From: a bacterium
GTDB lineage: Bacteria; Patescibacteriota; Andersenbacteria; UBA10190; CAIZMI01
NCBI GenBank assembly: GCA_030647555.1
Contig: JAUSJG010000024.1
Span: 3,878 to 67,877, forward strand
Direction of reading: 5' to 3'
Length of the DNA: 64,000 bases
Shown here piece after piece: positions 45,670 through 64,000 of the stretch. Under the pieces are notes generated by a model. It saw nothing but the letters and a program-made list of their open reading frames with translations. It was not told where the DNA came from and searched no databases. Made by a program: the position numbers and the translations under genes. Every line of letters begins with the position of its first letter. Positions within the stretch are counted from its first letter, which is position 1.

Positions 45670-45741
45670 AATGGTTGTTTATTAACAATTTAACCACTTT
45701 TATATTAGCGCAAGTTTCAAAATGTTTAAAGAATCAAATAT

Positions 45742-45826
45742 CCCACTTCGCTCCGCGTTGCGGAGCTTCGCGGGATTGTTTTCTTTTGTAAAAGAAAACA
45801 AAAAAAACCGCCCTTGAGGAGCGGCT
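45742..45826 (-). terminator. composite terminator/repeat module: CCCACTTCGCTCCGC-gtt-GCGGAGCTTCGCGGG hairpin + GTTTTCTTTT-gta-AAAGAAAAC hairpin + A9 + ccgcccttgaggagcgg hairpin
   Basis: Lies downstream of the 45831..46370 gene. The GATTGTTTTCTTTTnnnAAAGAAAACAAAAAAA core recurs at 47056..47090. Confidence 0.5.
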
Positions 45827-45830
45827 GGAT

Positions 45831-46370
45831 TCACGAACGACACTTCGTGAAAATGTGTTGAATGGTATTCGTTGGTATTACCCATACTAGTTGCATAGGC
45901 TGAACCGACATTGAATGGTAATTCAACTCATGCACATCAAGTTGCCATTTCAAGGAAAGCGTCTGAAAATGCGCCAGCTTTGTGATATTGTCTGCTCCTT
46001 GTTCCAGAAGATCCCCTTTCTCCAGGTGCGGGATTGACAGACCCCAATTACACTCACTGACACGCTCTTCAATTGTCCGACGCGCCGCCTCGATTGTGTC
46101 GGCACAAAATTCTTCAAACGCGATATCCGCCGTTGCAACTTGTGTCTGCAAATTACGCGGAATGTTCTCACGACCCAGCCGGTTGGCAAATTCAATCCGT
46201 TCATTTCCTGAAAAACCGGAAAGAATCAACTGCGGTCTGTCGCTCCACAATTCACCCACTGAAAGAACCACGCCTTGCGGCCTAATCCCAAACAACGGCT
46301 GCAGGTATTGTTGCAATCGATCAACGTTCATTGTTCTACCTCCAAAAAGAAAAGGACATTTCGACGCCAA
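45831..46370 (-). CDS. hypothetical protein (GC-rich; possible true start at MNVDRL, 46331)
   Basis: Long ORF with GC-rich codon usage unlike its neighbours. No family recognised. Confidence 0.4.
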   Translation of the reverse strand: MASKCPFLFGGRTMNVDRLQQYLQPLFGIRPQGVVLSVGELWSDRPQLILSGFSGNERIEFANRLGRENIPRNLQTQVATADIAFEEFCADTIEAARRTIEERVSECNWGLSIPHLEKGDLLEQGADNITKLAHFQTLSLKWQLDVHELNYHSMSVQPMQLVWVIPTNTIQHIFTKCRS

Positions 46371-46478
46371 AATACATTAACATTAAATATATAAAAGTCA
46401 AGCCCGGAAACACAAAATCGTCTCATCATTCATAAATCATTATTCATCATTCAAACTATAAAAATTACCGCACTATCA

Positions 46479-46913: not shown

Positions 46914-47083
46914 GTTTTAGAAAAGAAAAAATTAATTTAAACAATCAACAGCCCAACCACTCCCGCCAACAAAACATAAATCACGCAATACGGAAATACA
47001 ATTTTTATTACTTGATGCTCTCTGTTTTTCAAACGCCCTGTTGGGCGGGCTATGGGGGATTGTTTTCTTTTACGAAAGAAAAC

Positions 47084-47112
47084 AAAAAAAGAGTACGAAC
47101 GAATTCGTACTC
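47084..47112 (-). terminator. rho-independent terminator of the nadE-containing operon (gagtacgaa-cgaa-ttcgtactc + T7 on minus strand), followed by a GTTTTCTTT...AAAGAAAAC hairpin
   Basis: 9-bp perfect stem with the T-tract on the minus strand, immediately 3' of the nadE stop. Confidence 0.65.
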
Positions 47113-47139
47113 CTGCCAAAGAACAACCTTGGTTCACTC

Positions 47140-49266
47140 TTACGGCACGCGATCGCAGTCCGCTTGCCACTCGTCGTCACAACCCTCCGTCGGCCACACA
47201 AAGTCCCCACCAAGCGGTGATAGCGACAAGAGGCCCAACTTCACACTGTCCGGCACGCAGTTGCGTTTATACTGACCGTCAAAAAACCGCCGCCAGAAAA
47301 CCTTTTGCCACTTCACAATCTCCGGCAACGAAAAACTTGGTTCTCCCTCCGAGAAAACTTCCCAAACGGCGCGATTGATCCAGCTGGGACGCCGTCCAAA
47401 GCGTAACCCCCAAAACAAAAAGAATTCGCGCAAGATTTCCGGACCGATAATCTCATCCGTAATCTGAACTCGCTTACCGCCCACTAAGCGCGTCAACTCC
47501 GGTGATGGCGCCAATCCGGCCACTGCTCGAAATGCATCCCGCACGAGCGGTTGACCCACAAACACATGATCCGCCATCCAAAGCAGAACATGTTTTTCCA
47601 AACTCTTGGGCATCGAAGCATTCGGATTGAAATGACTGGCCCCGTCACCATGCATCGTAAACCACCCCACGGCGGCTTCCGTCATCGTGCCGGTACCGAT
47701 AAACATGCCAATCTCGCGTGCCCCGATGGTCAAAGCTAAAACCGTTCTCAACCAGGCCTGCGCGTTTTCAAATGCCAAATCCTCTTTCAAACCATCGTGG
47801 CCGGAGAGAAGAAGAAGCATTTCTGCCAGACCCAACACTTGTTCTGGTCTATCCGAAAGAGGTACATCCAAACTGGAACCATTCTTGGCAATCGGAATTT
47901 CGCGGAAATCAAATCCAAACGCCTCGCCGATTGTTCGCGCCAGATCGCGCGTTTCATCGGTTGTTCCAAACCCCGGAATCGACAAACAAACAACATCGTC
48001 ATGATCGTAATGGAGTAGATCCGCCGCGTGCGCGATCACTCCGGCAACATTTACCGAATCGCGCCCGCCGGAAAGATTGAACAACAACTTCACTTTGCGT
48101 TGTTGCTTCTCCTGCATGTAGCGCCAACGACAAGCTAGCGCGTGCGTTTGAATCCGGTGCACCGTTTCGCAGGCATAAGTAAGTTCCGCCGGATCCTCCG
48201 GCACGAAAGGTGTACGAGAAATCTTTCGCTTTAGAACATACTGGGGAGAGTGTTCGCCCCGATTCGCAAAAGTAACACCAGGACAAGATACTGGCGATTG
48301 ATCCAACCACCCAAACTCTTGCACTCGGAAATCAACAGCCCCGGGGCGCAACATGTTTTCAATCCATGCCTTGTTATCACTAAACGTGTGTTGCTCCAAA
48401 CGATCTTGCACGCAAGAACCAAGATCGACATCGTGCGTAAGATGAGACGACTCGAAACCGAAACGTTGCTCCCCTTGCGCAATAATGTTGCCCCGTTCCG
48501 CCACAAGAATCTGGTTGTCCCAAGCAAGTCCCCGATTTCCTTCTCCGGGACCAGCGGAAACATACAAATAGACATTGTTGTTTTTTCCGGAAGCGACTTT
48601 GACCAAGTCCTGCCGAAACAAATCTTTACCAATTGTAATGTTACTGGCCGAGAGATTCATCTCCACCATCGCTCCCCAGAGGGCGGCAAAGGCGGAAGGA
48701 CTGATGGGTACCCACATGTCCTCGCACAGTTCGTGATGCAAAATGAAGTCTTCGCAAAACTTGTGCTTGAGCAAAATGTCCCAACCACAGGGAATTACCG
48801 TTCCCAACAACCGCATCTGCCGTAAGGTTGACCGATAGCCGGGAATAAAAAACTTGTGCTCCAAGAACTCGCGATAGTTTGGCAAGAAACTTTTGATGTG
48901 CCCCGACAAGGGGCGCCCGCCGTAAAACGAAATTGCGCAGTTATACAAATCCGTACCTTGCACGATTGGCGCGCCAACTGTGATGAGCATCGGAAAATTG
49001 CGTGTCTTTTCGGCCAATTCGGCCAATGTTTCCAGTGTCGCCTCTTGCAACGTTTCGCTCTGAAACATTTTGTCACAGCTGTAGCCGGTAATGGAAAGCT
49101 CCTGAAAACCGGCAAATTGCGAACCTTCCTGCTTCATCTGTTGTAAAACCTGCATGTGTTCATCGAGATTCTTACGCGGTGCACCAATGTGCGTCCGTGT
49201 TACACCCAACGAGACACGTGCAAAACGATGATGACGCAAATCGTACCAGTCGTAATTGTTCTTCAT
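47140..49266 (-). CDS. nadE: glutamine-dependent NAD+ synthetase (N-terminal CN-hydrolase/nitrilase domain + NAD synthase PP-loop domain)
   Basis: FARVSLGVT...IGAP..N...ELSITGYS nitrilase-like N-terminus. NLSGGRDS PP-loop. 708 aa, like long-form NadE. Confidence 0.85.
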   Translation of the reverse strand: MKNNYDWYDLRHHRFARVSLGVTRTHIGAPRKNLDEHMQVLQQMKQEGSQFAGFQELSITGYSCDKMFQSETLQEATLETLAELAEKTRNFPMLITVGAPIVQGTDLYNCAISFYGGRPLSGHIKSFLPNYREFLEHKFFIPGYRSTLRQMRLLGTVIPCGWDILLKHKFCEDFILHHELCEDMWVPISPSAFAALWGAMVEMNLSASNITIGKDLFRQDLVKVASGKNNNVYLYVSAGPGEGNRGLAWDNQILVAERGNIIAQGEQRFGFESSHLTHDVDLGSCVQDRLEQHTFSDNKAWIENMLRPGAVDFRVQEFGWLDQSPVSCPGVTFANRGEHSPQYVLKRKISRTPFVPEDPAELTYACETVHRIQTHALACRWRYMQEKQQRKVKLLFNLSGGRDSVNVAGVIAHAADLLHYDHDDVVCLSIPGFGTTDETRDLARTIGEAFGFDFREIPIAKNGSSLDVPLSDRPEQVLGLAEMLLLLSGHDGLKEDLAFENAQAWLRTVLALTIGAREIGMFIGTGTMTEAAVGWFTMHGDGASHFNPNASMPKSLEKHVLLWMADHVFVGQPLVRDAFRAVAGLAPSPELTRLVGGKRVQITDEIIGPEILREFFLFWGLRFGRRPSWINRAVWEVFSEGEPSFSLPEIVKWQKVFWRRFFDGQYKRNCVPDSVKLGLLSLSPLGGDFVWPTEGCDDEWQADCDRVP

Positions 49267-49297
49267 TTTGGTTTCCTCTATGCTTTGGTTTCAGAAA

Positions 49298-50272
49298 CTA
49301 GTTTTCGAAATAACTCCGCACCGCCAAGATCTGCTTGGAGATATCGCAGTCAAGTGGCAAAACTTCAAACGGATGACAATCATCTGCCTCCCTTAGGGCG
49401 TTAATCGTCCATGGACAGGAATTCGTCGTCCAGAAATGTTCAATCGGAAAATCCGCGTTGCAGATTTTGGTCCAAGACTGATTTGGTGCAACAAGGTGGG
49501 TCGCGTACATACTGATTTTTTTGGCACCACCCCTAATAAGCACCTCACCACATTTCAGTTGTGTACCAAAGGTTTGAGCAAGATCATCAACGACCACGCA
49601 GTGACGACCACGCGGTTCACCTTCTTTAATCGTCACGATCCTCCGATTACCTTCCCTGTGTTTATCGCAAATAATCAGAGGCCACTCGCTAAACATTTCC
49701 CCGAAGCGTTTTTTTGCGCCCTCGTCGGGAAATACGACAGATACGTTGTTACGATCAGGCAATCCACGCAAATGTTTCTGAAGCATCGGAATCGCGCTTG
49801 TCAAAATAGGCAACATATTTGTTCCTTCGAAAATAAACCATTCCGACAAGGCATGCATATCCCAAATCACCACACGATTCTTCAAGGAAACACAAGATGG
49901 AATACTCGACAAATCACGCGCCATTGATTTGGCCGTGACAATCCGACCTTGCCGATCCATTCGCTCCATTGTCCCGGTTGGGAAAAAGGGAAGAATAATC
50001 GTGAGCGAACGCGCTTGGTAATACGCGAAAGCACTCATTACCCAGCGTTGCGTGACACTGTCCTGTGGATTTTCAAAGGCCGCCAAAAACGCCACGTCGC
50101 GCCCCCTCAAGGAGTTTTCATCTTTCATCACAATGTGAAAGTCCGGCCAACTGTCGGCAAAACGGCCCCATTGAATGTTTCCTCGCACCATCCCGGAACC
50201 GACGCCGGTAATCGACCGCGCCATCTGTTCCATTGCCTCACAATAATAGACAATAATCGGTTTCATCATCAA
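49298..50272 (-). CDS. ribose-phosphate pyrophosphokinase (Prs)-family protein, divergent
   Basis: Collinear with Prs: DMHALSEWF (DLHA.QIQGFF), VVFPDEGAKKR (VVSPDAGG.KRA), GRHCVVVDDLAQTFGT (GRDCVLVDDMIDTGGT), YATHLV. The substrate-loop residues are altered (FFPTGTMER, QTFGT). Confidence 0.7.
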   Translation of the reverse strand: MMMKPIIVYYCEAMEQMARSITGVGSGMVRGNIQWGRFADSWPDFHIVMKDENSLRGRDVAFLAAFENPQDSVTQRWVMSAFAYYQARSLTIILPFFPTGTMERMDRQGRIVTAKSMARDLSSIPSCVSLKNRVVIWDMHALSEWFIFEGTNMLPILTSAIPMLQKHLRGLPDRNNVSVVFPDEGAKKRFGEMFSEWPLIICDKHREGNRRIVTIKEGEPRGRHCVVVDDLAQTFGTQLKCGEVLIRGGAKKISMYATHLVAPNQSWTKICNADFPIEHFWTTNSCPWTINALREADDCHPFEVLPLDCDISKQILAVRSYFEN

Positions 50273-50438
50273 TCTCCTTCTCTACTTATGTAGTTGTGAA
50301 AAAACCATCCGACACAAACTGTAAACTTCCGTTGCAATGGCCGAACAATTTTGTTGTTCAGCTGCTGCAAAAAAGGGCCGCGTAAAATTGCACTTGGTGC
50401 AATTACGCGGCTGGATTTTGGTTACTTTCAAAAGGGAG

Positions 50439-51683
50439 CTAAACCCGGCAAACTTCCGTGTCGTTATGCGTGTGTCCGTAGATACGCTTAGCACGCGCGA
50501 TGTCTTCCAACCTTCCAACAGCCTTCGCAAGATTATCGGAAAGTTTTACCGGCCAGCGACCGTTGGCACGGATAATTTTGGCAACGAGCGAGATCGGATC
50601 GATCCCCAAATCATTCCCTAAATCCGTCCCCCACCCGTAGCAGGTACCGAGCCGGTTCTCAAAATGAAGATAGAGTTCAATGATTCTCTCCGCCCACAGA
50701 CCGTCCGAAAACACACCAAGCTTGGTAAGTGGATTAACACCGAACCCCTTGTAAAACTGAATCGCCCGCTCACCCCACTTGAAGGGGTCACCCGAATCCT
50801 GACGCAACCCTTTCCAGAGCATCGCTTGTTCTCGCGTCATATCCCGGAAGAAAAAATCACTGCCGAAAGTATCGGTTAAAGCGATTGAGAGCGACTCGCC
50901 GTACAAATCCCACCAATCTTTCAGCATTTGCTGATGCGATTGCCGGATCGAATCGTCATCATCTCCAAATAGGCAAGCATAGACCATGTCAAGCTCGTGC
51001 GCTTGCGTCCCTTGGACTTTCAAACCTTGTTCCATCGCAATCCACACGTTGGAGGTACCGGTCAGCTGCTCAGGTTTCAATTCATTCATAAGTCGACAAA
51101 TTACTTTTTCTTGCCAATCAAGACAACAACGCCGGCGTGTACTAAACTCCATGATCCGAATTCCGGGATACTGCGAAATCATCTCCAATTTTCTTCCCAA
51201 CCGGAGATGTCCTTCCTTGTACAAATCCTGCAACGTCATATCCTGCGCTCGCAACACAAATTGGTTGCGAAGTTGGTTGACAATGGTAATACCAATCGTT
51301 TCCCAAGGACTCGCTTCTTCCCATGCGCCTGGAAACCGCAAATCGTACTGCCCGTCCAATCCAACCTCTAACTCATAGGGGGGCAACTGAAATTCGCGCA
51401 GATAATCCACAAACTCTGGCGCATACTGCGGCCGTCCATCAGAAAGACGAAAGCTTCGCAGATAGTCCAATTCGCGATCGGTAAACCGCAATGTTCGACA
51501 ATGGTCAAGCTGGGCCTGCAGTTCGCTAATGGGGATAATATCCGCCAACCGCACGCTCTTTGTGCGGTTGTTCATCGCAAGAACCACCGGCACACCCCGC
51601 CGTTTACTCCAAATCAATTGTTGCATGTTGAGTTTATAGACGTCCAAATCGGTCAAGTGATTGATAATCGGTTTTTCTTTCAC
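50439..51683 (-). CDS. pncB: nicotinate phosphoribosyltransferase (type II PRTase, PncB-like)
   Basis: N-terminal LTDLDVYKLNMQQLIW matches the PncB LLDTDAYKLHMQQAV signature. ~400-aa length. Confidence 0.75.
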   Translation of the reverse strand: MKEKPIINHLTDLDVYKLNMQQLIWSKRRGVPVVLAMNNRTKSVRLADIIPISELQAQLDHCRTLRFTDRELDYLRSFRLSDGRPQYAPEFVDYLREFQLPPYELEVGLDGQYDLRFPGAWEEASPWETIGITIVNQLRNQFVLRAQDMTLQDLYKEGHLRLGRKLEMISQYPGIRIMEFSTRRRCCLDWQEKVICRLMNELKPEQLTGTSNVWIAMEQGLKVQGTQAHELDMVYACLFGDDDDSIRQSHQQMLKDWWDLYGESLSIALTDTFGSDFFFRDMTREQAMLWKGLRQDSGDPFKWGERAIQFYKGFGVNPLTKLGVFSDGLWAERIIELYLHFENRLGTCYGWGTDLGNDLGIDPISLVAKIIRANGRWPVKLSDNLAKAVGRLEDIARAKRIYGHTHNDTEVCRV

Positions 51684-51721
51684 TGCTCATTCCTTTTCTA
51701 AAATGGGTTTTAGAGAAACAA

Positions 51722-52339: not shown

Positions 52340-52497
52340 TAACTTGTTCCTTTAAGTAACCAAAATTGTCATAGAACATGATTTCAAAACGCTTTTGAAA
52401 CCAGAGAAATATTGTCGAAAATTCAACAACAGTTCTCTAAAAAATTCGGCGCGGGAAGCAGGTTTCTTCCCGCGCCAACGAACTTACTTCCTAATAT

Positions 52498-53268: not shown

Positions 53269-53451
53269 TGCAAATCCCCCAAAATTTGAGAAAGTTTTTG
53301 TAAAACAACACTACTCGGTTTCCCCGAGAGAGCTTGCGCCAAAATTATATTATAATTTTAGTCCAAATTCTCTTGAGAAAAAATTTGGAGAGGAACGCAG
53401 TAAATACTGCGTTCCTCTCCTCGCTATTGCGATTCTAGATCACACCAGTTG

Positions 53452-53718
53452 TCATCTTCGACGACCGGTGTTTTGTTCTTGAACGATCGCTTCCTTCACG
53501 ATTGCCCGATACTTTCCTTTCCACGACGCGTTCACCTGCGGCCAAAACTTTTCCAGATTTACCGCCGCAACGTCTGACCGCGTAGCCAAACGGTGCGCCA
53601 AATAAACCTGTTCTGCCGCTTCTCCGACAAACGCATCATCGAGATTTCTTCCGCCAGCATTCGCCAACCGAACAAGTTCACATGCTTTCGGAAGCAAAGT
53701 CGTGTCCCGAATTTTCAT
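53452..53718 (-). CDS. small hypothetical protein within the operon
   Basis: 88-aa ORF sitting 16 bp after the vWA gene. No motif recognised. Confidence 0.3.
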   Translation of the reverse strand: MKIRDTTLLPKACELVRLANAGGRNLDDAFVGEAAEQVYLAHRLATRSDVAAVNLEKFWPQVNASWKGKYRAIVKEAIVQEQNTGRRR

Positions 53719-53734
53719 CGTTTCACCTTACTCC

Positions 53735-54724
53735 TTAAGCAAACGAGTCATCATCGCCCGCGCCACTTCCCGCCCCGGCCGGAACGGCATTCTGCGTCGC
53801 CAGCGGTACCGTCGCCTTGATCTTGCCGGCCGAAGCCCGCAAGACCGATGACGACATCCGGAAACCGAGAACACTCATCAATGTATCCGGGTCACTTGGG
53901 AATGCTTGCACCACGGTCTTGAGAAAGCCCATGCCACCAACGACCGTTTGAGGATCAAGACGCTTCATCGCTTGCTCCACTTCAGGATCGTTCTCGCAAG
54001 CCACACATTGGAAAATCCGCAAATCCAAAGCTTCGCGCTCCGCATCGTTATGCAAAACGAGACCCATATTCGAGGCCATCATGTCACGAAGATTTTCGTC
54101 CATGAAACCGTAGAATTGGAAGCTCCATTTCTCGGATAACGCTTTAGTGGCGACGTAAGTTTTCAACTGCTCCCGGTGACCGGGGGCACTTTCGTTGTCG
54201 AAGCCGTCGGAGACGACTACGACCACGCGTCGCACATCGTTGCCGTCCTTTTCCAGCGCCGCGGCCAGCAATTCGCATGCCGCCGTGCCCTGCCGAACCG
54301 GTTCGTAAATCATCGTCGTACCGGAAGGATAATAGACCTGTTCGGTAATTTCCGGCAGACAGTGGGGATCGCCTTTGAGTGCCGTCATAAACGGCACGTC
54401 CGGCCCGTGTGGCTCCCAGGCTTTCCACTTGCTATTGAAGAAAATCACGCGAATGTGCATCTTCCGCCGCTCGTGCGACTTCATCAGCACTTCGCGAAAC
54501 GAATTCAGACCTTTTCGCACAGCTTGTGCTTTTCCAGAAAGAGAACCGGACATGTCCACCACCACCACCAACGCTGTCGCCTCGCCTTCCTGCGTTTCCG
54601 CTTGTTGGGCATAGGAAACAATCGCTTGTGGCAAATGTGCCCCGGCGATCGTACCGAGCACCATCTGTTGATCGTCGACTGTATCGGCGTCATAGAAGGG
54701 AGCCACCACTTGAGAATTACTCAT
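53735..54724 (-). CDS. von Willebrand factor A (vWA) domain protein, TerY-like (start set at MSNSQ)
   Basis: VVVVDMSGSLSG (DxSxS MIDAS) and VVVVSDGFDN motifs. Confidence 0.7.
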   Translation of the reverse strand: MSNSQVVAPFYDADTVDDQQMVLGTIAGAHLPQAIVSYAQQAETQEGEATALVVVVDMSGSLSGKAQAVRKGLNSFREVLMKSHERRKMHIRVIFFNSKWKAWEPHGPDVPFMTALKGDPHCLPEITEQVYYPSGTTMIYEPVRQGTAACELLAAALEKDGNDVRRVVVVVSDGFDNESAPGHREQLKTYVATKALSEKWSFQFYGFMDENLRDMMASNMGLVLHNDAEREALDLRIFQCVACENDPEVEQAMKRLDPQTVVGGMGFLKTVVQAFPSDPDTLMSVLGFRMSSSVLRASAGKIKATVPLATQNAVPAGAGSGAGDDDSFA

Positions 54725-54834
54725 CTTTCTATACCTTTCTAATGGAGTCCAGAAAAACAGAAACAAGAGAAAAAGAAGTGATGCCACGACACACTGTCGC
54801 GACACCACTAACAAACCAACCAGAAACTCGATAC

Positions 54835-56817
54835 CTATCCGCAGAGCGAGAACGACTCGGTCGTCTCGAACCGCACACCCAACTTGCGCATTTCGGCTTC
54901 TGCTGTTCGCGCATTCTTTTCGAAACCGGGGATGTCACAGCTGGTATCCCAAAGATACACCATCCGCTCTAACAAATCTTTCCGCCCGGAAGCAATACAC
55001 TTTTCCATGGCTTGCTGCATACTGCGCAAAACACAGTGCGTACGCGCCTGGCCGGACACTACCACCAGATCGAACGGCGGAATGCCCAATTCGGGAAATC
55101 CCTCGAACAACTGGAGAATGGAAAAAGTAGCTTGAGCGTTGGGATCGGTCGTAATTTCATACTCCGGTCCGAACACACCATAGAACTCCGTGCGCCACGA
55201 CATCCCCTTCGGGAAAAACATGGGCTCGGTTTCGATTGTCCCCCGCAAAAAGTTGCGGTGGTACATCGCCGCCATCACCAGCGGATCCAGCGTGGAACCG
55301 TAGGTAAACCGGTGGCAATGCTTGGTCCACAAAACCACAAACCCCAACTTGTTCACGTAATCCCAGGTCTCGTCGAGAAACTCTTGGGATCGCGTAATCG
55401 GTTGGTACCAACCATCCGGATTGTGCTGGGGATGCCAGCACGAACTGGGCAAAACAACCGGAAACGGCTTGTCCGCTCCATCAATAAACAGGTGCGGATG
55501 CGCACCGGCCGGCAACCCGAACGGGTTATTCGCCCGCAGTTGCCAGTAGTGCATATCAAACCGTGCCGTCAATGGATGGAAATCAATCGTATATCCGTCG
55601 CCGGTAATCGCCGCCGCGTTTCGCAGATCCCATTCGACTGAACGAATGGTTCCACTCCACGCGTTGGGCACACTCAAATGCCCACCCATCACCGACAAAC
55701 TTTGGAAACAACTCCCCGCTTCGGGATCATCCGTCCAGACAACCCGATTGCGCGGATTTTTTCCACCCTCTTTCCACCAATCCGGCACATCCAAAGTATC
55801 CCGGAAAACGTGAGGTAACACGCGAGTGACACACCCGGTCTTCACATCCACCGTCGTAAACGGCGACAAGAAGTCCGTCTGTTCATCCACATGCAATCGG
55901 AAAACCCGCGGAGAGTCTTTGCCCGTCTTTCTGACACCGTACTTACCGGCCATCCGGTATGCCTCCGCCTGGATCACATCCGCGTTGGGTTGGAACCAGG
56001 GGTTGACGCACAACGACCGATCGTACCAACCCGGCAACGGCAATTGCGGAACACTCGTCAACGGCGACTTTTTCGTAAAGATCGGCGCCGCATCCGCAAC
56101 CGCTTGCTTGGTCGGCGGAATTTCTGCTTCGAACGGAAACAACTCGTGTTCACCCACTTTCGAAATCGGCAAGTTGGCGATGGCATATTCCTTCACGCCA
56201 CGCTGTCCCTGATCGTCGTAGGTGTAGCCGTCACCTTTGTACGTCTCACGCAGGTGTACCGAGAAGTACAAGAACTGCCGAAACGCCACCAGGTCACGAC
56301 CACTCATCAAATAACGCTCGTAGGTCATAAACCTTGGATCGTCTTGGCTCTTGTTCGTGACCTTCACCTCGACGTCCAACCACTTGTAGCCCGAACGCGT
56401 CTGCAGCGTTGCGAACTCCGTGGACTTCAACTGTTGGCGATGCCGTTTTACATCAACGGCCAGATCCGGATAAGCATCGACAACAACATCGAGCATCCCG
56501 TCCCATGTCGCCAATCGGGCTTTCGTCCCCGTTTCCGGGAAAACGATCGTCTGGACTTTGTAACCGGCCAGCAGTTTTTCCCTGGCGTAATCCTCGTTCC
56601 AACCGATCGCCATCAACACCTCCCAGCCGGACAAGCCAATCAAACCCGCCAGACCGTTACTGTCCACCAGCATCACGATCTTGCGGTTGACGTCGTCCGC
56701 CATGGTTTCGAAATCTTTCGGCGACTTGCCTCGCAGCACGCGACCGCAAAGGCCAGTCACGGAATCACGCTTGCCGCTCAAAAAAGCTTTTCTGTACTCG
56801 CTAATCGTTCGAATCAT
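54835..56817 (-). CDS. fusion protein: ~300-aa N-terminal domain of unknown function + C-terminal isochorismatase/nicotinamidase (PncA)-like cysteine hydrolase domain
   Basis: RLHVDEQTDF resembles the isochorismatase N-motif (VIDMQNDF). LVVVSGQARTHCVLRS resembles the catalytic-Cys motif (V.G...CV..T). Confidence 0.5.
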   Translation of the reverse strand: MIRTISEYRKAFLSGKRDSVTGLCGRVLRGKSPKDFETMADDVNRKIVMLVDSNGLAGLIGLSGWEVLMAIGWNEDYAREKLLAGYKVQTIVFPETGTKARLATWDGMLDVVVDAYPDLAVDVKRHRQQLKSTEFATLQTRSGYKWLDVEVKVTNKSQDDPRFMTYERYLMSGRDLVAFRQFLYFSVHLRETYKGDGYTYDDQGQRGVKEYAIANLPISKVGEHELFPFEAEIPPTKQAVADAAPIFTKKSPLTSVPQLPLPGWYDRSLCVNPWFQPNADVIQAEAYRMAGKYGVRKTGKDSPRVFRLHVDEQTDFLSPFTTVDVKTGCVTRVLPHVFRDTLDVPDWWKEGGKNPRNRVVWTDDPEAGSCFQSLSVMGGHLSVPNAWSGTIRSVEWDLRNAAAITGDGYTIDFHPLTARFDMHYWQLRANNPFGLPAGAHPHLFIDGADKPFPVVLPSSCWHPQHNPDGWYQPITRSQEFLDETWDYVNKLGFVVLWTKHCHRFTYGSTLDPLVMAAMYHRNFLRGTIETEPMFFPKGMSWRTEFYGVFGPEYEITTDPNAQATFSILQLFEGFPELGIPPFDLVVVSGQARTHCVLRSMQQAMEKCIASGRKDLLERMVYLWDTSCDIPGFEKNARTAEAEMRKLGVRFETTESFSLCG

Positions 56818-56868
56818 TTCAGATCCTCTCTCTTACTAAGGGTTCACAAGAAACACGAAACACAAACT

Positions 56869-58752: not shown

Positions 58753-59651
58753 TAAGTCACCTCTCTTTCAATAAAAACACCGCTGATATCATCATCAAAA
58801 ATCACCGATCCGTCCGGCATCGTATTTTTTTTCACCAACAGACGCGCCAAATCGTCCACCTCTTCGGGATGATAAACGTTCCACGCATCATCACTCGACA
58901 AGATAGTTAGATCCTCGTCCTCTCGTCGGTTGTTGAGATCCAACAGCCAAGTTTCAAACTTGCGCCACTTCCAACGCCCAAACGGATTAGCCGGCGCATG
59001 ATGCCAAGGCCAACCATCGGTCGTAACTCCCAACTTTTGAAAATTCGGTGGCACACGAATTACTTTGGAATGTAGATCGGCTGGATCGCCAGGGTATTCC
59101 TGACCCTTGATCGCCAACATGTAACCCAAATAGGGCGGCATGTCATTGTAGTCAAAGATGCTTAATTTCCCGTCCAAGGAAACTTTTGCATCACCACGAA
59201 CCAAAACCAATCCTCCTTCATCTTCATGCACACAAACCCCCAGAACGGTTGCTTGATACATTTCTGCAATCGCGGCATAAACCAAGTAGTTATCCGACTC
59301 CATCAGATCAACTGCACGGTCGTAAACCGTAAGTTCCGACAGAAATTGTGCTCCACCCGGATAAGCGGCAATGGCATTCATCAGATATCGCTGTAACAAC
59401 CGGTCGTAGGCGCCGGGAAAAATATCCCAGGACACACCCAGTTTGACCAGTTGCCACATCGCCTGCGTGGCGGCATGACACAGCTGCGCCGCACCGGCCT
59501 CACTTTTACTGCTTGCAGAACAACCATCGGCAACAGAGGCGACGATCATTTTGTCGCGCCGAAAGGAAAAAACCATATCCTGGCAGTTCTTTCGGCGATT
59601 GTAATGCGTCGGACCAGGTTTTGCCGCCGAACCACACCATACTCTTCCCAT
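58752..59651 (-). CDS. PP2C-family Ser/Thr phosphatase
   Basis: NCQDMVFSF...IVASVADGCSAS resembles the PP2C N-motif (NQD...AVADGMGG). TAATG stop/start overlap with the kinase gene. Confidence 0.7.
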   Translation of the reverse strand: MGRVWCGSAAKPGPTHYNRRKNCQDMVFSFRRDKMIVASVADGCSASSKSEAGAAQLCHAATQAMWQLVKLGVSWDIFPGAYDRLLQRYLMNAIAAYPGGAQFLSELTVYDRAVDLMESDNYLVYAAIAEMYQATVLGVCVHEDEGGLVLVRGDAKVSLDGKLSIFDYNDMPPYLGYMLAIKGQEYPGDPADLHSKVIRVPPNFQKLGVTTDGWPWHHAPANPFGRWKWRKFETWLLDLNNRREDEDLTILSSDDAWNVYHPEEVDDLARLLVKKNTMPDGSVIFDDDISGVFIEREVT

Positions 59652-59835
59652 TTTGTCACTCCTTGTACTTATTATCTAGAATCGCAAGTTGTCAAAACAA
59701 CCAACCAAACCGCACCCTTTTGACCCTACGAGGATCATCCGGAGCAAGGGGTAAAGGTATATCACATCTATAATTCTTGTCAAGCAAAAAATCGGCTTGT
59801 TTTGACACATCAAAACGGCCATACTGACCGCTAAT

Positions 59836-60381
59836 ATGAATAATATTATTGATGCTCAAAATGGCGACGAGACGGCATTTGCTGAATTGGTTAAACAAAA
59901 CTTGCCACTAATTTACCGCTACATATTTCGATTAACGGGAAACGTGGCCACGGCCGAGGATTTAACCCAAGAAACATTCGTGCGCGTTTGGAAAAACTTG
60001 TCGCGTTTTGACACCAAAAAACCTTTTCGCCCGTGGCTTTACCGCATTGCGCGCAACTGCGCTTTCGATTTCTTGCGCAAGAAAAATACCGTGCCGTTTT
60101 CTTATTTGTCGGAGCAGGAGCAACTAAAATTGGGAACCCTGCCGGACAATAGTACTTCTCCGGCCGATGCACGCGATAGCACTTCGCAAATCGTTTTGTT
60201 GACAACAGATACAACCTACGAAAAGACGACAACCGCCACACAAGGTGATTTTCAAACAAGTGCCTCGGTAGTAATAAACGGCAAATCCAATCCGGATGGT
60301 TCAGTCACCGCCACATCCGTCCAAACCGCGCCGGCAAATTTAGGACAAGGTCAAAATCAAGGTCGACTAATAAGTCAGTAA
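59836..60381 (+). CDS. ECF sigma-70 region-2-only protein (no region 4) with Thr/Ser/Gln-rich C-terminal tail
   Basis: DLTQETFVRVWKNLSRFD...FRPWLYRIARNCAFDFLRKK is clear sigma region 2. No HTH/region 4 follows in any frame. Confidence 0.5.
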   Translation: MNNIIDAQNGDETAFAELVKQNLPLIYRYIFRLTGNVATAEDLTQETFVRVWKNLSRFDTKKPFRPWLYRIARNCAFDFLRKKNTVPFSYLSEQEQLKLGTLPDNSTSPADARDSTSQIVLLTTDTTYEKTTTATQGDFQTSASVVINGKSNPDGSVTATSVQTAPANLGQGQNQGRLISQ

Positions 60382-60397
60382 ATATCTAAACAGAAAA

Positions 60398-60419
60398 AGT
60401 GTCAACTACTGTTGACACT
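60398..60419. terminator. perfect 9-bp hairpin AGTGTCAAC-tact-GTTGACACT flanked by A5 (5') and TTTAAAAAAA (3'); possible bidirectional terminator
   Basis: Seen directly. The T-run is stronger on the minus strand. Confidence 0.45.
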
Positions 60420-60514
60420 TTAAAAAAATACCCCTAAAATACGAACACATCCCCCTGGGATCGTCCCCGAGTGATGTGTTCGTTTCTCTCGAGAACTTCA
60501 GAAGGGAGTCTCTC

Positions 60515-60781
60515 ATGCAACGGTTTTTGGTTGTAGTGGCGTCGATGATTTTTTTTGTCTCAATCATTTCGGCCGGCAACGCGTTTGGCGATGCTTTCCG
60601 GCTTGGTTGCGGATGCGGACGCGGAGCCGACCCGTCGGTTTGCGTGGCCACCACGACACCGCCCACCACGCACGAAGTTGCCCAAGTGGCCGTTCCCAAG
60701 CAACCCAACGCCGGTTGCGCGGGAAAAGCGTGTAAGCAACGCCTCGGATCGCGATTGGCGGCTCGCCTCCGACATCGCTAG
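60515..60781 (+). CDS. small secreted Cys-rich peptide (88 aa) with strong Shine-Dalgarno
   Basis: aagggag 7 nt upstream of the ATG. MQRFLVVVASMIFFVSIISAGNAFG signal peptide, then GCGCGRG...C...CAGKAC. A GC-rich region with overlapping ORFs lowers confidence. Confidence 0.35.
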   Translation: MQRFLVVVASMIFFVSIISAGNAFGDAFRLGCGCGRGADPSVCVATTTPPTTHEVAQVAVPKQPNAGCAGKACKQRLGSRLAARLRHR

Positions 60782-60954
60782 ACGCCTGATGTCTGCGACC
60801 CGGCACGTTTTCGTACTACCAAGTACGGAAACGTGCTCTTTTTTAATCCCCATTAACGTCTTCCTGATCACACGCAATAGTGGGATAGTTTCAGTAAAGC
60901 GATATTCCTTTAAGCCATTTTTACCACATCGGAGGTACCACTTCCGGGATCGGA

Positions 60955-61971
60955 TTAGTAACTGTGAATAATTTTCAATATATTGCTTGAAAGACTTTCA
61001 AATTCTTCTTTAGATTTTTCAATGTTTTCTTTTGTTCCCTGATGATGATCCGCAACCTGCGCGGGGTCCAAGTTGAAAATAGCCGTCCCAATCTCCTGAC
61101 ACTTTGATGGAATTCTTCCATAATCCTGAACAGTTTGTAATGGATTTCTCCAACTACTCTCCACAAGCCCGTTCCGGCAATGCTTTTCCGACAAATATTC
61201 TCTCACCTTGCCGGGAATTTTCTGCATCCACGCACGATGATCGGCGATTGGCTGTTCACCATAAACATTATATGAATTGACAATATAACCGATAAAAAGA
61301 GGGTCGCCCTGCAAAACAAATTTCGTTTCAGTGTTTCCGGCCAGTGCCTTCGCGCTATTCCTCCAATTTATTTTCCACTTTTCATAAACGATACCAAGAT
61401 TTTCAATTCCCTGAACACTGAAAGCATCAGGCAACACCGGAACAACGAAATAATCCGCGCCAAGCAAAATCATTTGATTAAGCAAACCCAAACTTGGCGA
61501 AGTATCAATCACAAAAACATCAACTTGATCGCTTAATCCTTTTTCCCTCAAAAAACGATCAATCGCGCTTGTCTGAAAATATCCTATTTGCTGACCGGAT
61601 GCCGCTTGGCCATAGGCAGTGATTAATAAACCCTCATAAACAGACAAATTCAAGTCCCCTTTCAATAAAAACAAGTTAGAATTTTCCCTAACTCGCAAAA
61701 ATTGCACGCCAAGATTGATATCGGAACCACCCTCGACCACACCTTTTAATACGTCAAAAATTGTCTTTTCATCTCCCGAAAAAAGATTCTTAACGTAAAA
61801 CTCCTCGCCCATCGCAAGACGACTAAGATTGCACTGCGGATCCAAATCGATCAACACTGTCTTATAACCTTTTTCCGCAAAAGCTACCGCACAATTATAG
61901 GCAAGGGTTGTTTTTCCTACACCGCCTTTATTGTTGGAAAAAATTACTTTTTTCGACCGCGGAAACTTCAT
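60955..61971 (-). CDS. ParA/MinD-family P-loop ATPase with long C-terminal extension (orphan; no parB seen)
   Basis: NNKGGVGKTT deviant Walker A; 338 aa. Confidence 0.75.
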   Translation of the reverse strand: MKFPRSKKVIFSNNKGGVGKTTLAYNCAVAFAEKGYKTVLIDLDPQCNLSRLAMGEEFYVKNLFSGDEKTIFDVLKGVVEGGSDINLGVQFLRVRENSNLFLLKGDLNLSVYEGLLITAYGQAASGQQIGYFQTSAIDRFLREKGLSDQVDVFVIDTSPSLGLLNQMILLGADYFVVPVLPDAFSVQGIENLGIVYEKWKINWRNSAKALAGNTETKFVLQGDPLFIGYIVNSYNVYGEQPIADHRAWMQKIPGKVREYLSEKHCRNGLVESSWRNPLQTVQDYGRIPSKCQEIGTAIFNLDPAQVADHHQGTKENIEKSKEEFESLSSNILKIIHSY

Positions 61972-62071
61972 AATTGCATTATGCCAGATGCGTCAAATAT
62001 ATCAAAATCAAAACAACTACACAAACAAAAAACCATTTGCCAAAGCCTGCTTTACACATTACACCATAGCT

Positions 62072-64000
62072 ATGACTTTACTCTCGCCTGATATTATTAA
62101 TCGCTCCGCAAAGAAATACTTTGATTACGCCATTTTTCGCCGTGGCGAGGATTATTTTCAACGCGGACGGGTAAAAAATATCGATTTTGAGATTAGCGAG
62201 GATGACAAAACAGTACTGGTGACCGCGAAAGTCCGCGGTTCAAGAAGCTATGAATCTTCCGTAACGTTCAACGCGGAAAGCGGTGAAATTTTAGACGCAA
62301 CATGCACTTGCCCATATGATGACGCCTGCAAACATTGCGTTGCGACCGCACTGGCATTTGCCGAAAAAACCGCAATTACGAAGGTTTCGGGAGTAAACGA
62401 AGTAATAGTTAAAACGGCGTTGAAAAATATGGGCATTTCCGTCGAAAAAATGCCCGCGGATTTATTAAACCGCATTTTGGATTACCAAGAAGAAACCCAA
62501 AAACAACCACGTTTATTTGCGGTTCCGAAAAAGGTTTTGATGCCAAAAATACCTAAACCACCTCAACCGAAAAAGTTTTTTATCAAGCTTTCTCATTATC
62601 CTTATTATGCTCCAAGTTTATACAACGAAGATAACCCCCACCAACCCGCCAGTTTAAAAAGAACACTGGATTTACCACAAATAACGACAGCGCAATGTGA
62701 ACTGCTTTTACTTATTCAGGAGGGAAATTTCCAACAATACTCCTCCGCTCAACCGGACTACGGCAAATTATTGCCACTTCTTGCCAAGGCGGAATTCCCT
62801 GTTTATCGCGAAAACATTTATACCGAAGATACGCAACTTGATATTGTTATTGATCCGTCGCCCTTGCAGGCAACACTAAAACATTATTCCGTACGCCAAC
62901 AAATCGATAAAACAAAAGTACGGCACGACTTCTACCTGGAAATGCCCGCCAAATATTGGAAAACTGACGAATCTTTTTACGGCAATCCATTTTTAGCAAA
63001 TAATGATTGCGCCATTCGCGACACCGGAACAACTCTTGAACTGCATCGGCTTTCTCCGCTGTTGGCAAAATTAATTGCCCGAGCTCGTCGCGATTATTAT
63101 AGTGAAAGCAGTAAAATCACACCGCCGGTATGTACCGCAGAACTAACCGGAGATGAGGTGGCACAATATGAACAACTTACCGCCGATGTACAGCAGTTTT
63201 TGAAACTTTCCGCACCACTTCCGCCCCTTTCCGTTCACGTAGAAAAAAATACGCCCCGTCCGGTTTTTTTGGCGCACTTTAATAATGCGGAACAAGAAAT
63301 AAACGTAGCGCCCGCCATCGACTACGGATTTTACCAACAAGATATTTCAAAAGACATATATTTAAGTAGACGAAAATACGATAGCGGACTAAAACGAGTG
63401 GCACCATGGGAACACCCCGGTACACATATCGTTGATGTCAAAGATAACATAATTCATGTTGCGGAAATAAATGCTGATCTGGAAATTAACTTGTTTTCGG
63501 AAATCATGAAGAAAAACACTGAACTGGGTTTTTCTGAAAAATTAAGATGCAAAAAAATAGGAACCAAACCGCTTGAAAACTACCTGCGCGACGGTTGGCC
63601 CAAAGTATTGGCGTATGCCAATGAAAAAGGCTACGGAATAATTTTTACGCAAGATACACTACCAACGGAAGAAGAAATTTTTCGCGCCGATTTTGCGTCA
63701 CAAATAAACGCTGACAATGATTGGCTTTATTTCGATTTAAAGTGTTATTGCGGAGAAGAAAAAGTTACCCTAGAAAAACTACTTGAGTTCTTAAACAGTG
63801 GACAAAAATATTGGAAAAAAGATGACGGCACACTGGTAAACGTCGCCAACCGTGAGGAGCTGGAACGACTGGCGCGACTACTGGAAAGTTTTCACGCTAA
63901 AGAAAACGGCGGTTTCGAAGGGCGCCTGCACCACGCGGCGGAACTGGAATACGTGATGACCAGCTCACCCCACTACAATGCCGTTCGCGAAGAAAGCTTC
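62072..64000 (+). CDS. SWIM zinc-finger protein, probable N-terminal region of an SNF2-family helicase-associated protein; 3' end runs off window (absent from ORF track)
   Basis: Hand translation from the ATG at 62072 stays open for 643 codons. CTCPYDDACKHC is a SWIM CxC...CxH motif. Confidence 0.6.
   Translation, partial: MTLLSPDIINRSAKKYFDYAIFRRGEDYFQRGRVKNIDFEISEDDKTVLVTAKVRGSRSYESSVTFNAESGEILDATCTCPYDDACKHCVATALAFAEKTAITKVSGVNEVIVKTALKNMGISVEKMPADLLNRILDYQEETQKQPRLFAVPKKVLMPKIPKPPQPKKFFIKLSHYPYYAPSLYNEDNPHQPASLKRTLDLPQITTAQCELLLLIQEGNFQQYSSAQPDYGKLLPLLAKAEFPVYRENIYTEDTQLDIVIDPSPLQATLKHYSVRQQIDKTKVRHDFYLEMPAKYWKTDESFYGNPFLANNDCAIRDTGTTLELHRLSPLLAKLIARARRDYYSESSKITPPVCTAELTGDEVAQYEQLTADVQQFLKLSAPLPPLSVHVEKNTPRPVFLAHFNNAEQEINVAPAIDYGFYQQDISKDIYLSRRKYDSGLKRVAPWEHPGTHIVDVKDNIIHVAEINADLEINLFSEIMKKNTELGFSEKLRCKKIGTKPLENYLRDGWPKVLAYANEKGYGIIFTQDTLPTEEEIFRADFASQINADNDWLYFDLKCYCGEEKVTLEKLLEFLNSGQKYWKKDDGTLVNVANREELERLARLLESFHAKENGGFEGRLHHAAELEYVMTSSPHYNAVREESF

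Follow-up and report, generated by a model that had tools for sequence, protein, structure and literature searches.

Three described systems are closest to the locus considered here. Preiss-Handler clusters and NrtR regulons (Rodionov et al. 2008, cited through PMC9503650) bring together pncA-pncB-nadD-nadE, prs and an ADP-ribose pyrophosphatase. The TerY-P triad comprises a TerY-like vWA protein, a PP2C phosphatase and a Ser/Thr kinase whose C-terminus bears a Zn ribbon (Anantharaman et al. 2012, summarised in PMC11090510), and neighbourhoods of the kinase-Zn ribbon-beta-rich/PP2C/standalone-vWA type are reported in PMC7159879. Finally, 10.1101/2024.02.11.579819, PMC13464706 and PMC11662467 describe NARP1 (Adps and Namat), NARP2 (Nampt and NMNAT) and NARP3 (PnuC and NadR), as well as "NAD-jumbo phages" with pncB-nadD-nadE clusters.

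In a 64,000-nt stretch of DNA, the window, we find a GC-rich block that is predicted from its sequence to encode a complete Preiss-Handler NAD+ salvage route, together with a PP2C/kinase/vWA unit that has TerY-P-triad architecture and would resemble a phospho-switch. We propose, with a probability of roughly 0.6 that includes the salvage and switch roles set out below, that the block is a transferable NAD+ recycling cassette which this genome acquired by transfer, and not a plasmid or ICE remnant.

Extent and layout of the GC-rich block

Measured over 2 kb at a time, GC content is 0.41-0.45 in most of the window and 0.47-0.54 at ~47-61 kb, with a maximum of 0.54 at 54-57 kb. A 400-bp scan places the rise at ~47,000 and the fall at ~59,600, and detects a detached patch of 0.53-0.56 at 60,400-60,950. 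The block consists of nine contiguous genes, all on the minus strand (47,140-59,651; GC 0.48-0.55). GC3 ranges from 0.48 to 0.67 per gene with a mean of 0.55, against 0.43 +/- 0.04 in 35 backbone genes (Mann-Whitney p = 3e-5), and all codon classes are shifted, as seen in C/T-ending two-fold codons (0.44 in the block versus 0.34 in the backbone), G/A-ending two-fold codons (0.43 versus 0.26) and four-fold codons (0.62 versus 0.49). Tetranucleotide usage correlates with that of the backbone at 0.50-0.81 over 46-60 kb, compared with 0.90-0.96 elsewhere; a stretch at 10-22 kb, which contains the gene for a 2139-aa surface protein and purL/purQ (GC3 0.54), is equally deviant. An island of distinct composition had been predicted to span 45,700-64,000; its distinctness holds, but its limits are narrower, since the gene at 45,831-46,370 is raised only marginally (0.47) and 60-64 kb has tetranucleotide usage of the backbone type. 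We place the cassette, 12.6 kb in length, at ~47,050-59,700; its right-hand edge may lie as far out as 60,950. Long antisense ORFs are numerous inside the block, as had also been noted originally, whereas the salvage enzymes and the kinase/PP2C/vWA triad had gone unrecognised in that first description.

The nine genes fall into three units separated by terminators, with strong terminators 3' of the vWA, Nudix and NadE genes (Table 1). The first unit encodes the PP2C phosphatase, the Zn-ribbon kinase, a 660-aa protein and the vWA protein, the second the Nudix hydrolase, and the third the NMNAT-like enzyme, PncB, the Prs-like enzyme and NadE. A small ORF 3' of the vWA gene showed no conservation in the other cassette loci. 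Since a full-length homologue occupies the matching position in a related locus (L005), the divergent ECF-type sigma ORF may be a member of the cassette edge. Domain searches of the window found no integrase, as originally reported, no tRNA was found in the window, and neither a transposase nor an att-like repeat was present at the block edges.

Table 1. Features of the cassette and its right-hand neighbours (positions within the window)
Feature	Position	Strand	Remarks
Terminator-like hairpin and T-run	47089..47114	-	3' of NadE, left block edge; overlaps 42-nt repeat copy 47,049-47,090
NadE, glutamine-dependent NAD+ synthetase, 708 aa	47140..49266	-	Pfam CN-hydrolase and NAD_synthase
Prs-like, divergent PRPP-synthetase-like, 324 aa	49298..50272	-	weak Pfam Pribosyltran_N/Pribosyl_synth
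PncB, nicotinate phosphoribosyltransferase, 414 aa	50439..51683	-	Pfam NAPRTase 9e-41
NMNAT/NadD-like adenylyltransferase, 205 aa	51722..52339	-	Pfam CTP_transf_like, at cut-off
Strong terminator-like hairpin	52446..52478	-	3' of Nudix gene
Nudix hydrolase, ADP-ribose-pyrophosphatase-like, 256 aa	52498..53268	-	Pfam NUDIX
Strong intrinsic terminator	53387..53420	-	15-bp stem, 9 GC pairs; closes first operon
Small ORF, 88 aa	53452..53718	-	3' of vWA; status uncertain
Standalone vWA protein	53735..54814	-	weak Pfam VWA_2; MIDAS intact, D87-M-S-G-S
Nicotinamidase domain (PncA-like, isochorismatase fold)	54835..55920	-	C-terminal, 660-aa protein; AF2 model, pLDDT 82.5
N-domain, ~230 aa	56122..56817	-	N-terminal, 660-aa protein; AF2 pLDDT 96.7, pTM 0.90
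Ser/Thr kinase, 627 aa	56869..58752	-	weak Pkinase; CxxC...CxxC Zn ribbon 299-314; beta-rich C-terminal domain
PP2C-family phosphatase, 299 aa	58752..59651	-	Pfam PP2C_2 6.7e-11; stop overlaps kinase start
Divergent ECF-type sigma ORF	59836..60381	+	region 2 alone retained
ParA/MinD-like ATPase	60955..61971	-	Pfam AAA_31/CbiA; GC 0.40, GC3 0.39; outside block
SWIM zinc-finger ORF	62069..64000	+	GC 0.43, GC3 0.40; runs past window end; outside block

Salvage enzymes, nicotinamidase and the linked triad

Two of the salvage enzymes score above curated NCBIfam cut-offs, NadE with 500 bits against NF002730 (cut-off 473) and PncB with 381/379 for NF003704 and 276/269.6 for TIGR01514, and PncB also matches PDB 1ybe at 1.5e-88; the NMNAT-like, Prs-like and Nudix assignments lie below these thresholds. 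The NMNAT-like protein reaches E = 3e-5 with NadD models, under the cut-off, contains TLAH and SSTAAR motifs, and shares 35% identity with the N-terminal half of an NMNAT-NAD-kinase fusion in L003. The Prs-like protein, under every NCBIfam cut-off, matches Prs in the PDB (3e-17) and phrog_619 (2e-19) and has orthologues of 39-41% identity in L003 and L004; it could alternatively be an Adps-type ADP-ribose pyrophosphokinase. The Nudix hydrolase has weak matches to YffH/AdpP and ADPRase models and keeps the Nudix-box glutamates; NrtR was considered as its identity and rejected, as it has no similarity to NrtR.

The modelled nicotinamidase domain finds its best PDB matches in true nicotinamidases (2wt9, 3v8e and 3r2j; TM ~0.74 on the target), and the catalytic and metal-binding residues D311/K537/C595 and D412-x-H414/H500 are conserved. 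The N-domain has no Pfam model, a profile search of the PDB was empty, and Foldseek found no fold match (best E = 1.4 in the PDB and 0.34 in BFVD). With 552 clusters in a library of 1.84 billion proteins, it represents an uncharacterised family that appears to be undescribed.

The nicotinamidase gene always lies within a four-gene unit, alongside those for PP2C, the Ser/Thr kinase and the MIDAS vWA protein, a linkage that likewise appears not to have been described. The kinase-family profile matches the kinase domains of StkP and LRRK2 (4e-7), and G19/G21, K39, D143, N148, D163 and the four cysteines are conserved, leaving the catalytic residues intact. The vWA protein, which probably starts at M31, is homologous to the 264-aa vWA protein of other cassettes (hhalign 98%). 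None of the cassette proteins matched the PADLOC defence models, apart from a sub-threshold hit of the kinase domain to PD-T4-6 (E = 1.3e-3).

Distribution and origin of the cassette

The module is present in ~20 other cellular loci, mostly in CPR bacteria and also in Bdellovibrionota and Micavibrio, with gene set and order alike across L002-L027. In each of the 21 distinct loci where the N-domain is fused to the nicotinamidase, a kinase homologue lies at most 4 kb away, and NrtR is encoded upstream of the cassette in at least 14 loci (confirmed in L003 and L004 by Pfam NUDIX and WHD_NrtR), though not in the present copy. The viral contig L031 from IMG/VR (252,876 bp) carries PP2C, N-domain, NadE, PncB, kinase, nicotinamidase and vWA genes interspersed with genes for a GIY-YIG endonuclease, a Pif1 helicase and RNase H, and the huge phages LR756500.1 and LR756511.1 have distant nicotinamidase, vWA and kinase genes. 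Kinase identities across differently labelled phyla equal those inside one label, a comparison limited by unreliable MAG taxon labels (the kinases of L011, "Gammaproteobacteria", and L013, "Patescibacteria", are 96% identical).

That the cassette family has spread horizontally is well supported, because genomic contexts differ (the window, L005 and L006 have different flanking genes) and because, in each of the 14 other cellular loci compared, GC3 is higher inside the cassette than beside it. A recent arrival in this genome is no more than plausible. Searches recovered no close relative that covers the block site, and the recurrent GC3 excess means that the compositional contrast may be intrinsic to the cassette and not a mark of recency. 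The original prediction of horizontal acquisition is partly upheld by foreign usage in all codon classes, unrelated contexts, and sharing across phyla and with viruses, but weakened as to recency by that cassette-wide excess and by the lack of an integrase, tRNA or att site.

It is also possible, if doubtful, that the block is native to this genome, a housekeeping locus for NAD+ salvage passed on by vertical descent, and that its GC3 reflects not a foreign origin but a gene-specific bias, for example expression-related codon selection, or gene conversion favouring GC at an often-recombining locus. The excess over flanks at every other cellular locus compared (18 of 18 for GC) and the absence of mobility genes and att sites would fit such a history, as would purL/purQ, ordinary metabolic genes that equal the block in GC3. 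The nearest cassette homologues are found in CPR, and the backbone is itself CPR-like (sortase/DUF11, a split transketolase, and one Patescibacteria-named transketolase match). On the other hand, a shift that extends to G- versus A-ending codons is unusual for translational selection, and vertical descent accords poorly with unrelated flanks among the three closest cassettes and with a distribution that is patchy over phyla and also viral.

Proposed function and comparison with known systems

Under the transferable-cassette model, the nicotinamidase domain would convert nicotinamide to nicotinate, PncB would use PRPP to form NaMN, the NMNAT-like enzyme would yield NaAD, and glutamine-dependent NadE would complete NAD+. 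The Nudix enzyme may cleave ADP-ribose to AMP and ribose-5-phosphate, which Prs could turn into PRPP, such that NAD+ would be regenerated out of its own cleavage products. Gene linkage, our sole basis here, leads us to infer that the triad and N-domain control the nicotinamidase, gating the entry step by reversible phosphorylation, perhaps in response to a metal or nucleotide. Because NrtR is a repressor that senses ADP-ribose, the cassette in most other genomes would be transcribed when NAD+ is being degraded. Such a cassette would move horizontally among host-dependent bacteria (CPR, Bdellovibrionota and Micavibrio) and huge phages, and a phage-borne copy would counter NAD+ depletion.

The first operon might instead be a TerY-P-type anti-phage or conflict system, in which the switch activates a nicotinamidase effector on infection and starves NARP1 and NARP2 of nicotinamide, while the adjacent Preiss-Handler genes keep nicotinate usable for the host. 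We consider this unlikely. The triad does have TerY-P architecture, modules resembling TerY-P serve as defence systems in their own right and TerY-P triads are found alongside restriction systems (PMC11090510), both NARPs require nicotinamide, and a SWIM/SNF2-like gene with a DpdE-like N-terminus lies close by. Yet the four proteins of the unit yield at most the sub-threshold PADLOC kinase match, no recognisable defence-gene neighbourhood surrounds the module, and the module is usually under NrtR control jointly with NAD+ biosynthetic genes; moreover, it is carried with NadE and PncB by huge phages and the 253-kb viral contig, and therefore fits NAD+ supply better than host defence.

That all of 45.7-64 kb is a single plasmid, ICE or defence-island block, closed by ParA and SWIM/SNF2 genes as cargo or maintenance functions, is very improbable: both genes are real and do adjoin the GC-rich block, the SWIM ORF probably being the N-terminus of an SNF2-type protein with similarity to DpdE/PDC-S62, but their backbone composition excludes them from it, they accompany the cassette in no other locus, the window yielded no genes for a relaxase or an integrase and none for replication or conjugation, and a plasmid collection contained no relative of the marker protein save weak cysteine-hydrolase matches.

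The cassette shares with Preiss-Handler clusters and NrtR regulons its enzyme set and logic, including a dedicated Prs paralogue and a Nudix ADPRase adjoining the salvage genes, and most homologous cassettes have NrtR upstream, unlike this copy. In contrast to PncA, its nicotinamidase is ~3 times longer, with the N-domain and large inserts, and is locked in an operon with a kinase, PP2C and vWA protein. The triad is identical to TerY-P in its three-part architecture, with a Zn ribbon and beta-rich tail, an intact MIDAS and an apparently active PP2C; it differs in being tied to nicotinamidase and NAD+ biosynthesis rather than to ter, restriction or GTPase systems, in having no PADLOC sequence match, and in the position of the nicotinamidase between kinase and vWA. 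NARPs use Nampt/Namat or NadR, whereas the cassette takes the deamidated route through nicotinamidase, PncB and NadE. It further departs from NARPs and NAD-jumbo phages in its chromosomal, cellular location here and in its switch and N-domain, of which the papers checked (10.1101/2024.02.11.579819; PMC13464706; PMC11662467) make no mention. What it has in common with them is a mobile gene set making NAD+ from breakdown products or precursors, a PRPS-like enzyme, a phosphoribosyltransferase, and homologues in jumbo or huge phages.

Composition and limits of the GC-rich block

Sliding-window analysis placed GC content mostly at 0.41-0.45 across the window, with values of 0.47-0.54 at ~47-61 kb. 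At 400-bp resolution the rise falls at ~47,000 and the drop at ~59,600, and an additional GC-rich patch lies apart from the main block. The block consists of nine contiguous minus-strand genes (47,140-59,651) with GC of 0.48-0.55 and GC3 of 0.48-0.67, against a GC3 of 0.43 +/- 0.04 for backbone genes (Mann-Whitney p = 3e-5). The shift is present in pyrimidine-ending, purine-ending and four-fold codon classes alike, and tetranucleotide correlation to the backbone is 0.50-0.81 in the block compared with 0.90-0.96 elsewhere in the window. Quantitative GC and tetranucleotide analysis thus bears out the original prediction that composition is not uniform, with the caveat that 10-22 kb, where purL/purQ and the gene of a 2139-aa surface protein lie, deviates to the same degree; this stretch is also a tetranucleotide outlier and so represents a second compositional anomaly. 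The purL/purQ genes, at GC 0.52 and GC3 0.54, are as rich as the NAD cassette.

The limits of the block had been drawn more widely, from 45.7 kb to a ParA and SWIM/SNF2 pair taken as its end. Both genes do adjoin the block on the right, but their GC (0.40 for ParA, 0.43 for the SWIM ORF) is that of the backbone and they lie outside it as bystanders, as do the backbone-like genes to its left, at 45.8-46.9 kb. The remark that no integrase or att site is visible held: there is no integrase, recombinase or other mobility gene among the ORFs at 45-62 kb and no tRNA in the window, and the only notable repeat, of 42 nt, does not flank the block but lies on one side of it. The two direct copies are 86% identical, each combines an AT-rich hairpin with an A/T run and directly follows the 3' end of a gene on the minus strand, orf179 in one case and NadE in the other, and the pair brackets a 1.3-kb segment containing orf179 and a cupin gene. 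Terminator hairpins, each downstream of a gene, abut one copy and overlap the other. An att pair was considered and rejected; since both copies are on the left and sit at terminator hairpins, they are not an island boundary pair, and they look like duplicated or paired terminators.

The backbone is a bacterial chromosome, with purL/purQ, a split transketolase, two copper P-type ATPases, sortase and DUF11 proteins, and glycoside hydrolases. The closest relatives of the transketolase are metagenome proteins 75-79% identical to it, and one more distant match is labelled Patescibacteria. Surface genes such as the sortase/DUF11 set and the 2139-aa protein are typical of CPR-like bacteria. Several other backbone genes, listed in the table, may have nucleotide or NAD links.

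Gene content of the block and the 660-aa protein

Three strong terminator-like hairpins divide the genes of the block into units, which are listed with the other mapped features in the table.

Features of the window and of related loci
Feature	Location	Strand	Content or remark
Unit 1	59,651 to 53,452	minus	PP2C, 627-aa kinase protein, 660-aa protein, vWA, 88-aa ORF
Unit 2	between unit 1 and unit 3	minus	Nudix hydrolase, ADP-ribose-pyrophosphatase-like
Unit 3		minus	NMNAT/NadD-like adenylyltransferase, PncB, divergent PRPP-synthetase-like (Prs-like) protein, glutamine-dependent NadE
vWA with Ser-rich tail	53735-54814		see text
ECF-type sigma ORF	59836-60381		upstream of block; divergent, only sigma-70 region 2 left
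Additional GC-rich patch	60,400-60,950		GC 0.56; follows the sigma ORF
Small ORF in the patch	60476-60781		signal-peptide-like start
42-nt repeat copies	45765-45806 and 47049-47090		3' of orf179 and of NadE
Terminator hairpins at the copies	45,806-45,826 and 47,089-47,114		abutting and overlapping, respectively
Surface-protein genes	3237-8436		sortase between two DUF11 surface proteins
2139-aa protein	11030-17449		glycine-rich, with CHB_HEX_C
purL/purQ	17824-21484
Possible nucleotide/NAD genes	23602-26106 and 39779-40210		PTP-NADK-family dual-specificity phosphatase, CYTH protein, second small Nudix hydrolase
Copper-handling cluster	27319-36990		two heavy-metal P-type ATPases, DsbD-cupredoxin-HMA protein, DUF1573 protein
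Other cassette subtype	L003 12896-15351; L004 13045-14118		NMNAT fused to NAD kinase; ADP-ribosylglycohydrolase gene inserted
Huge-phage loci	L034, LR756500.1 63729-84508; L035, LR756511.1 112000-140000; MT837596.1		distant nicotinamidase, vWA and kinase genes

The PP2C gene of unit 1 (Pfam PP2C_2, 6.7e-11, 42.6 bits versus a cut-off of 24) has a stop that overlaps the start of the kinase gene. In the 627-aa kinase protein an N-terminal Ser/Thr kinase domain is followed by a zinc ribbon (CxxC...CxxC) and then by a tail rich in beta structure; its family profile matches the StkP kinase at 4e-7, and the kinase motifs and CxxC-x8-CxxC are kept in 13 of 14 homologues. The vWA protein matches VWA_2, with a MIDAS DxSxS at residue 87 and the downstream T and D present. 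In alignments of both cassette subtypes the C-terminal tail of the vWA is conserved and rich in Ser (…SSSVLRASAGK… / …FSQSAVRASQ…), which makes it a candidate site of phosphorylation by the kinase. The 88-aa ORF 3' of the vWA gene has a homologue in no other locus and was set aside as a system member. Upstream of the block, the place of the sigma ORF is taken in locus L005, one of the closest cassettes, by a full-length homologue of 218 aa. A 14-nt motif, TTGCGATTCTAGAT, shared by the sequence upstream of PP2C and the spacer between vWA and Nudix, was dropped as a putative operator, because one chance match is expected in 18 kb and no larger palindrome surrounds it.

The assignments in unit 3 are of unequal strength. 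PncB exceeds the cut-offs of two NCBIfam models (NF003704, 380.9 versus 379; TIGR01514, 276 versus 269.55) and matches PDB 1ybe at 1.5e-88, and NadE, with CN_hydrolase and NAD_synthase domains, reaches 500.3 with the NCBIfam model NF002730, whose cut-off is 473. The NMNAT-like protein has nucleotidyltransferase motifs and weak, under-threshold NadD matches; its orthologue in other cassettes is the NMNAT half of an NMNAT-NADK fusion. Cellular Prs and the phage family phrog_619, which contains Adps, are equally distant from the Prs-like protein, which could have ADPR-PP-forming activity. With the nicotinamidase domain of the 660-aa protein, and with an adenylyltransferase assigned from matches under cut-off, the block has a gene for each reaction of the deamidated route from nicotinamide to NAD+, together with enzymes that could supply PRPP.

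The 660-aa protein matched no Pfam or NCBIfam model at threshold, even over its nicotinamidase domain. Its 44 homologues include a few annotated as isochorismatase or nicotinamidase and several named CPR proteins, and their alignment revealed a strongly conserved N-terminal part of ~230 residues followed by a C-terminal isochorismatase-like domain. In the latter a catalytic triad (Asp311, Lys537, Cys595) and a metal site (Asp412-x-His414, His500) are conserved. The AlphaFold2 model (pLDDT 82.5) has nicotinamidases as its best PDB matches: Acinetobacter baumannii 2wt9, yeast Pnc1 and Leishmania PNC1.

The N-domain, modelled alone with AlphaFold2, reached a pLDDT of 96.7 and a pTM of 0.90. Foldseek returned nothing significant for it from either PDB or BFVD, and it has no PDB profile relative and no Pfam family. 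It belongs to an uncharacterised family, its predicted fold being unmatched in the two structure databases. An exhaustive search recovered 552 clusters at 50% identity, the majority of them standalone proteins of 220-260 aa, while some are joined to a nicotinamidase domain and a small number to phosphoesterases of the HD or calcineurin-like type. Standalone carriers include L019, L024 (Promethearchaeota), L025, L021 and L028; conserved neighbours were not found for such genes in the Asgard or other archaeal and bacterial loci. The HD fusion occurs in a giant-virus MAG (L033, protein P0041), and the calcineurin-like fusions in long proteins (P0288, P0320).

A cassette shared by cellular genomes and viruses

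Homologue look-up of the 660-aa protein and a scan of one genome per species yielded about 25 loci, which were mapped by tblastn. Common to these is a unit of PP2C, kinase, N-domain-nicotinamidase and vWA, which also occurs in the order nicotinamidase, vWA, PP2C, kinase, and all 21 distinct loci that have the fused nicotinamidase also have a kinase homologue within 4 kb. An NrtR gene (Nudix plus WHD_NrtR) is found upstream of the unit in at least 14 homologous loci; the 64-kb window has no NrtR-like sequence anywhere. Downstream, other loci carry an NMNAT-NAD kinase fusion, sometimes an ADP-ribosylglycohydrolase, and then PncB, Prs and NadE. The subtype with the fusion and the inserted glycohydrolase would have extra ADP-ribose-processing capacity; its short vWA is homologous to that of the window (hhalign 98%) and retains the MIDAS.

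Carriers are labelled Doudna-, Peregrini-, Colwell-, Moranii-, Falkow- and Parcubacteria, other Patescibacteria, Bdellovibrionota, Micavibrio and uncultured Gammaproteobacteria. These labels need caution, since the kinases of a 'Gammaproteobacteria' locus (L011) and a 'Patescibacteria' locus (L013) are 96% identical, reflecting either very recent cross-phylum transfer or mis-binning.

Viral genomes carry related genes. A 252,876-bp IMG/VR contig of GC 0.33 (L031) encodes, in order, a calcineurin-like phosphoesterase, PP2C, a standalone N-domain, an ammonia-type NadE, a SegE-like GIY-YIG endonuclease, PncB, kinase, a separate nicotinamidase, a Pif1 helicase, RNase H and vWA. Its kinase is 42-47% identical to type-B cellular kinases and about 25% identical to those of the window's subtype. 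Two huge phages in GenBank, LR756500.1 (462 kb) and LR756511.1 (595 kb), have distant nicotinamidase, vWA and kinase genes, which in LR756500.1 are adjacent, with NadE nearby.

The cassette has probably spread horizontally. Its composition is foreign, the flanks of the three closest cassettes (the window, L005 and L006) are unrelated, carriers are scattered patchily over labelled phyla and viruses, and kinases with different labels are no less alike than those sharing a label. No close relative spanning the site was recovered: a metagenome scan with the SWIM ORF gave no match, and the 452-aa flank protein matched only one 2.9-kb contig. GC is higher in the cassette than in its flanks in all 18 other loci compared, and GC3 in all 14 other cellular loci, by 0.004 to 0.25; the viral contig L031 is an exception, with a fully ameliorated GC3 of 0.245 versus 0.252 in its flanks. 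The contrast thus accompanies the cassette repeatedly in cellular genomes, and by itself it cannot date acquisition here. It may stem from frequent transfer, from GC-biased gene conversion or from codon selection. A plasmid or ICE remnant, as first supposed, does not fit the content, which is that of a recurrent NAD+ cassette, and a plasmid collection returned only weak cysteine-hydrolase matches. The original prediction misread what the block contains, although the compositional block itself is real: the 'island' is a recurrent, compositionally odd cassette.

A proposed function and its relation to known systems

In the proposed pathway, the Nudix hydrolase would convert ADP-ribose to AMP and ribose-5-phosphate and the Prs-like enzyme would produce PRPP, while nicotinamide would be deamidated and then processed by PncB, the adenylyltransferase and NadE. 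Both products of NAD+ cleavage would thus be rebuilt into NAD+. NrtR, which fronts most cassettes, would allow induction while NAD+ is being degraded; the window's copy is without it. The obligatory gene linkage of the nicotinamidase to an apparently active kinase, PP2C and MIDAS-bearing vWA suggests that the entry step, nicotinamide deamidation, is under reversible phosphorylation control, in which the N-domain would serve as sensor or acceptor.

Depleting NAD+ is central to how bacterial immunity fights phages. Since 2024, three pathways by which phages restore NAD+ have come to light; they use amidated or riboside routes, and we know of no dedicated regulator for any of them. We tentatively propose, at a probability of about 0.3, that the conserved unit together with PncB, NadE, Prs and Nudix forms an undescribed, phosphorylation-gated system for NAD+ reconstitution by the deamidated route, common to huge phages and episymbiotic or predatory bacteria, that permits survival of NAD+ depletion by the exploited cell or its immune NADases, and in which a signal derived from NAD+ reaches the switch through the N-domain acting as sensor or acceptor. 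The cassette would then represent a fourth logic: a complete Preiss-Handler loop with its first enzyme under a eukaryote-like kinase/phosphatase/vWA switch, carried by huge phages and by reduced-genome bacteria dwelling on other cells. If this proposal is correct, the widespread and functionally obscure TerY-P-type triad would gain a metabolic target, NAD+ salvage would gain a regulated step, and an N-domain family of more than 500 clusters (50% identity) with no annotation or known fold would gain a role; it would also help to explain how CPR bacteria secure NAD+.

The phage routes to NAD+ known so far are NARP1 and NARP2 (10.1101/2024.02.11.579819) and NARP3, which consists of PnuC and NadR (PMC13464706). 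NARP1 comprises Adps, a PRPS-like ADPR pyrophosphokinase, and Namat, a Nampt-like transferase. The Prs-like protein of the cassette may be a Prs or an Adps; its transferase is a clear PncB and not Nampt-like. Nampt, which NARP2 pairs with NMNAT, is absent among the cassette proteins, as are the PnuC and NadR of NARP3. Clusters of pncB-nadD-nadE are known from jumbo phages, without kinase, PP2C or vWA (PMC11662467). In the literature searched, a nicotinamidase-kinase-PP2C-vWA module is not described and nicotinamidase is not tied to such a triad. The PADLOC defence library gave no match for vWA or PP2C and only PD-T4-6 for the kinase (E = 1.3e-3), and neither the cassette nor its homologues showed any ter or restriction genes.

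Each half of the cassette does have clear counterparts. The metabolic half matches Preiss-Handler clusters and also NrtR regulons, whose repressor is de-repressed by ADP-ribose (as cited in PMC9503650). The triad has the same architecture as TerY-P, which combines a TerY-like vWA, PP2C and a kinase with a zinc ribbon (PMC11090510), and it also matches the kinase-ZnR-beta-rich/PP2C/vWA neighbourhoods of PMC7159879. The block is thus best classified as an NAD+ salvage cluster joined to a TerY-P-like switch and an uncharacterised domain.
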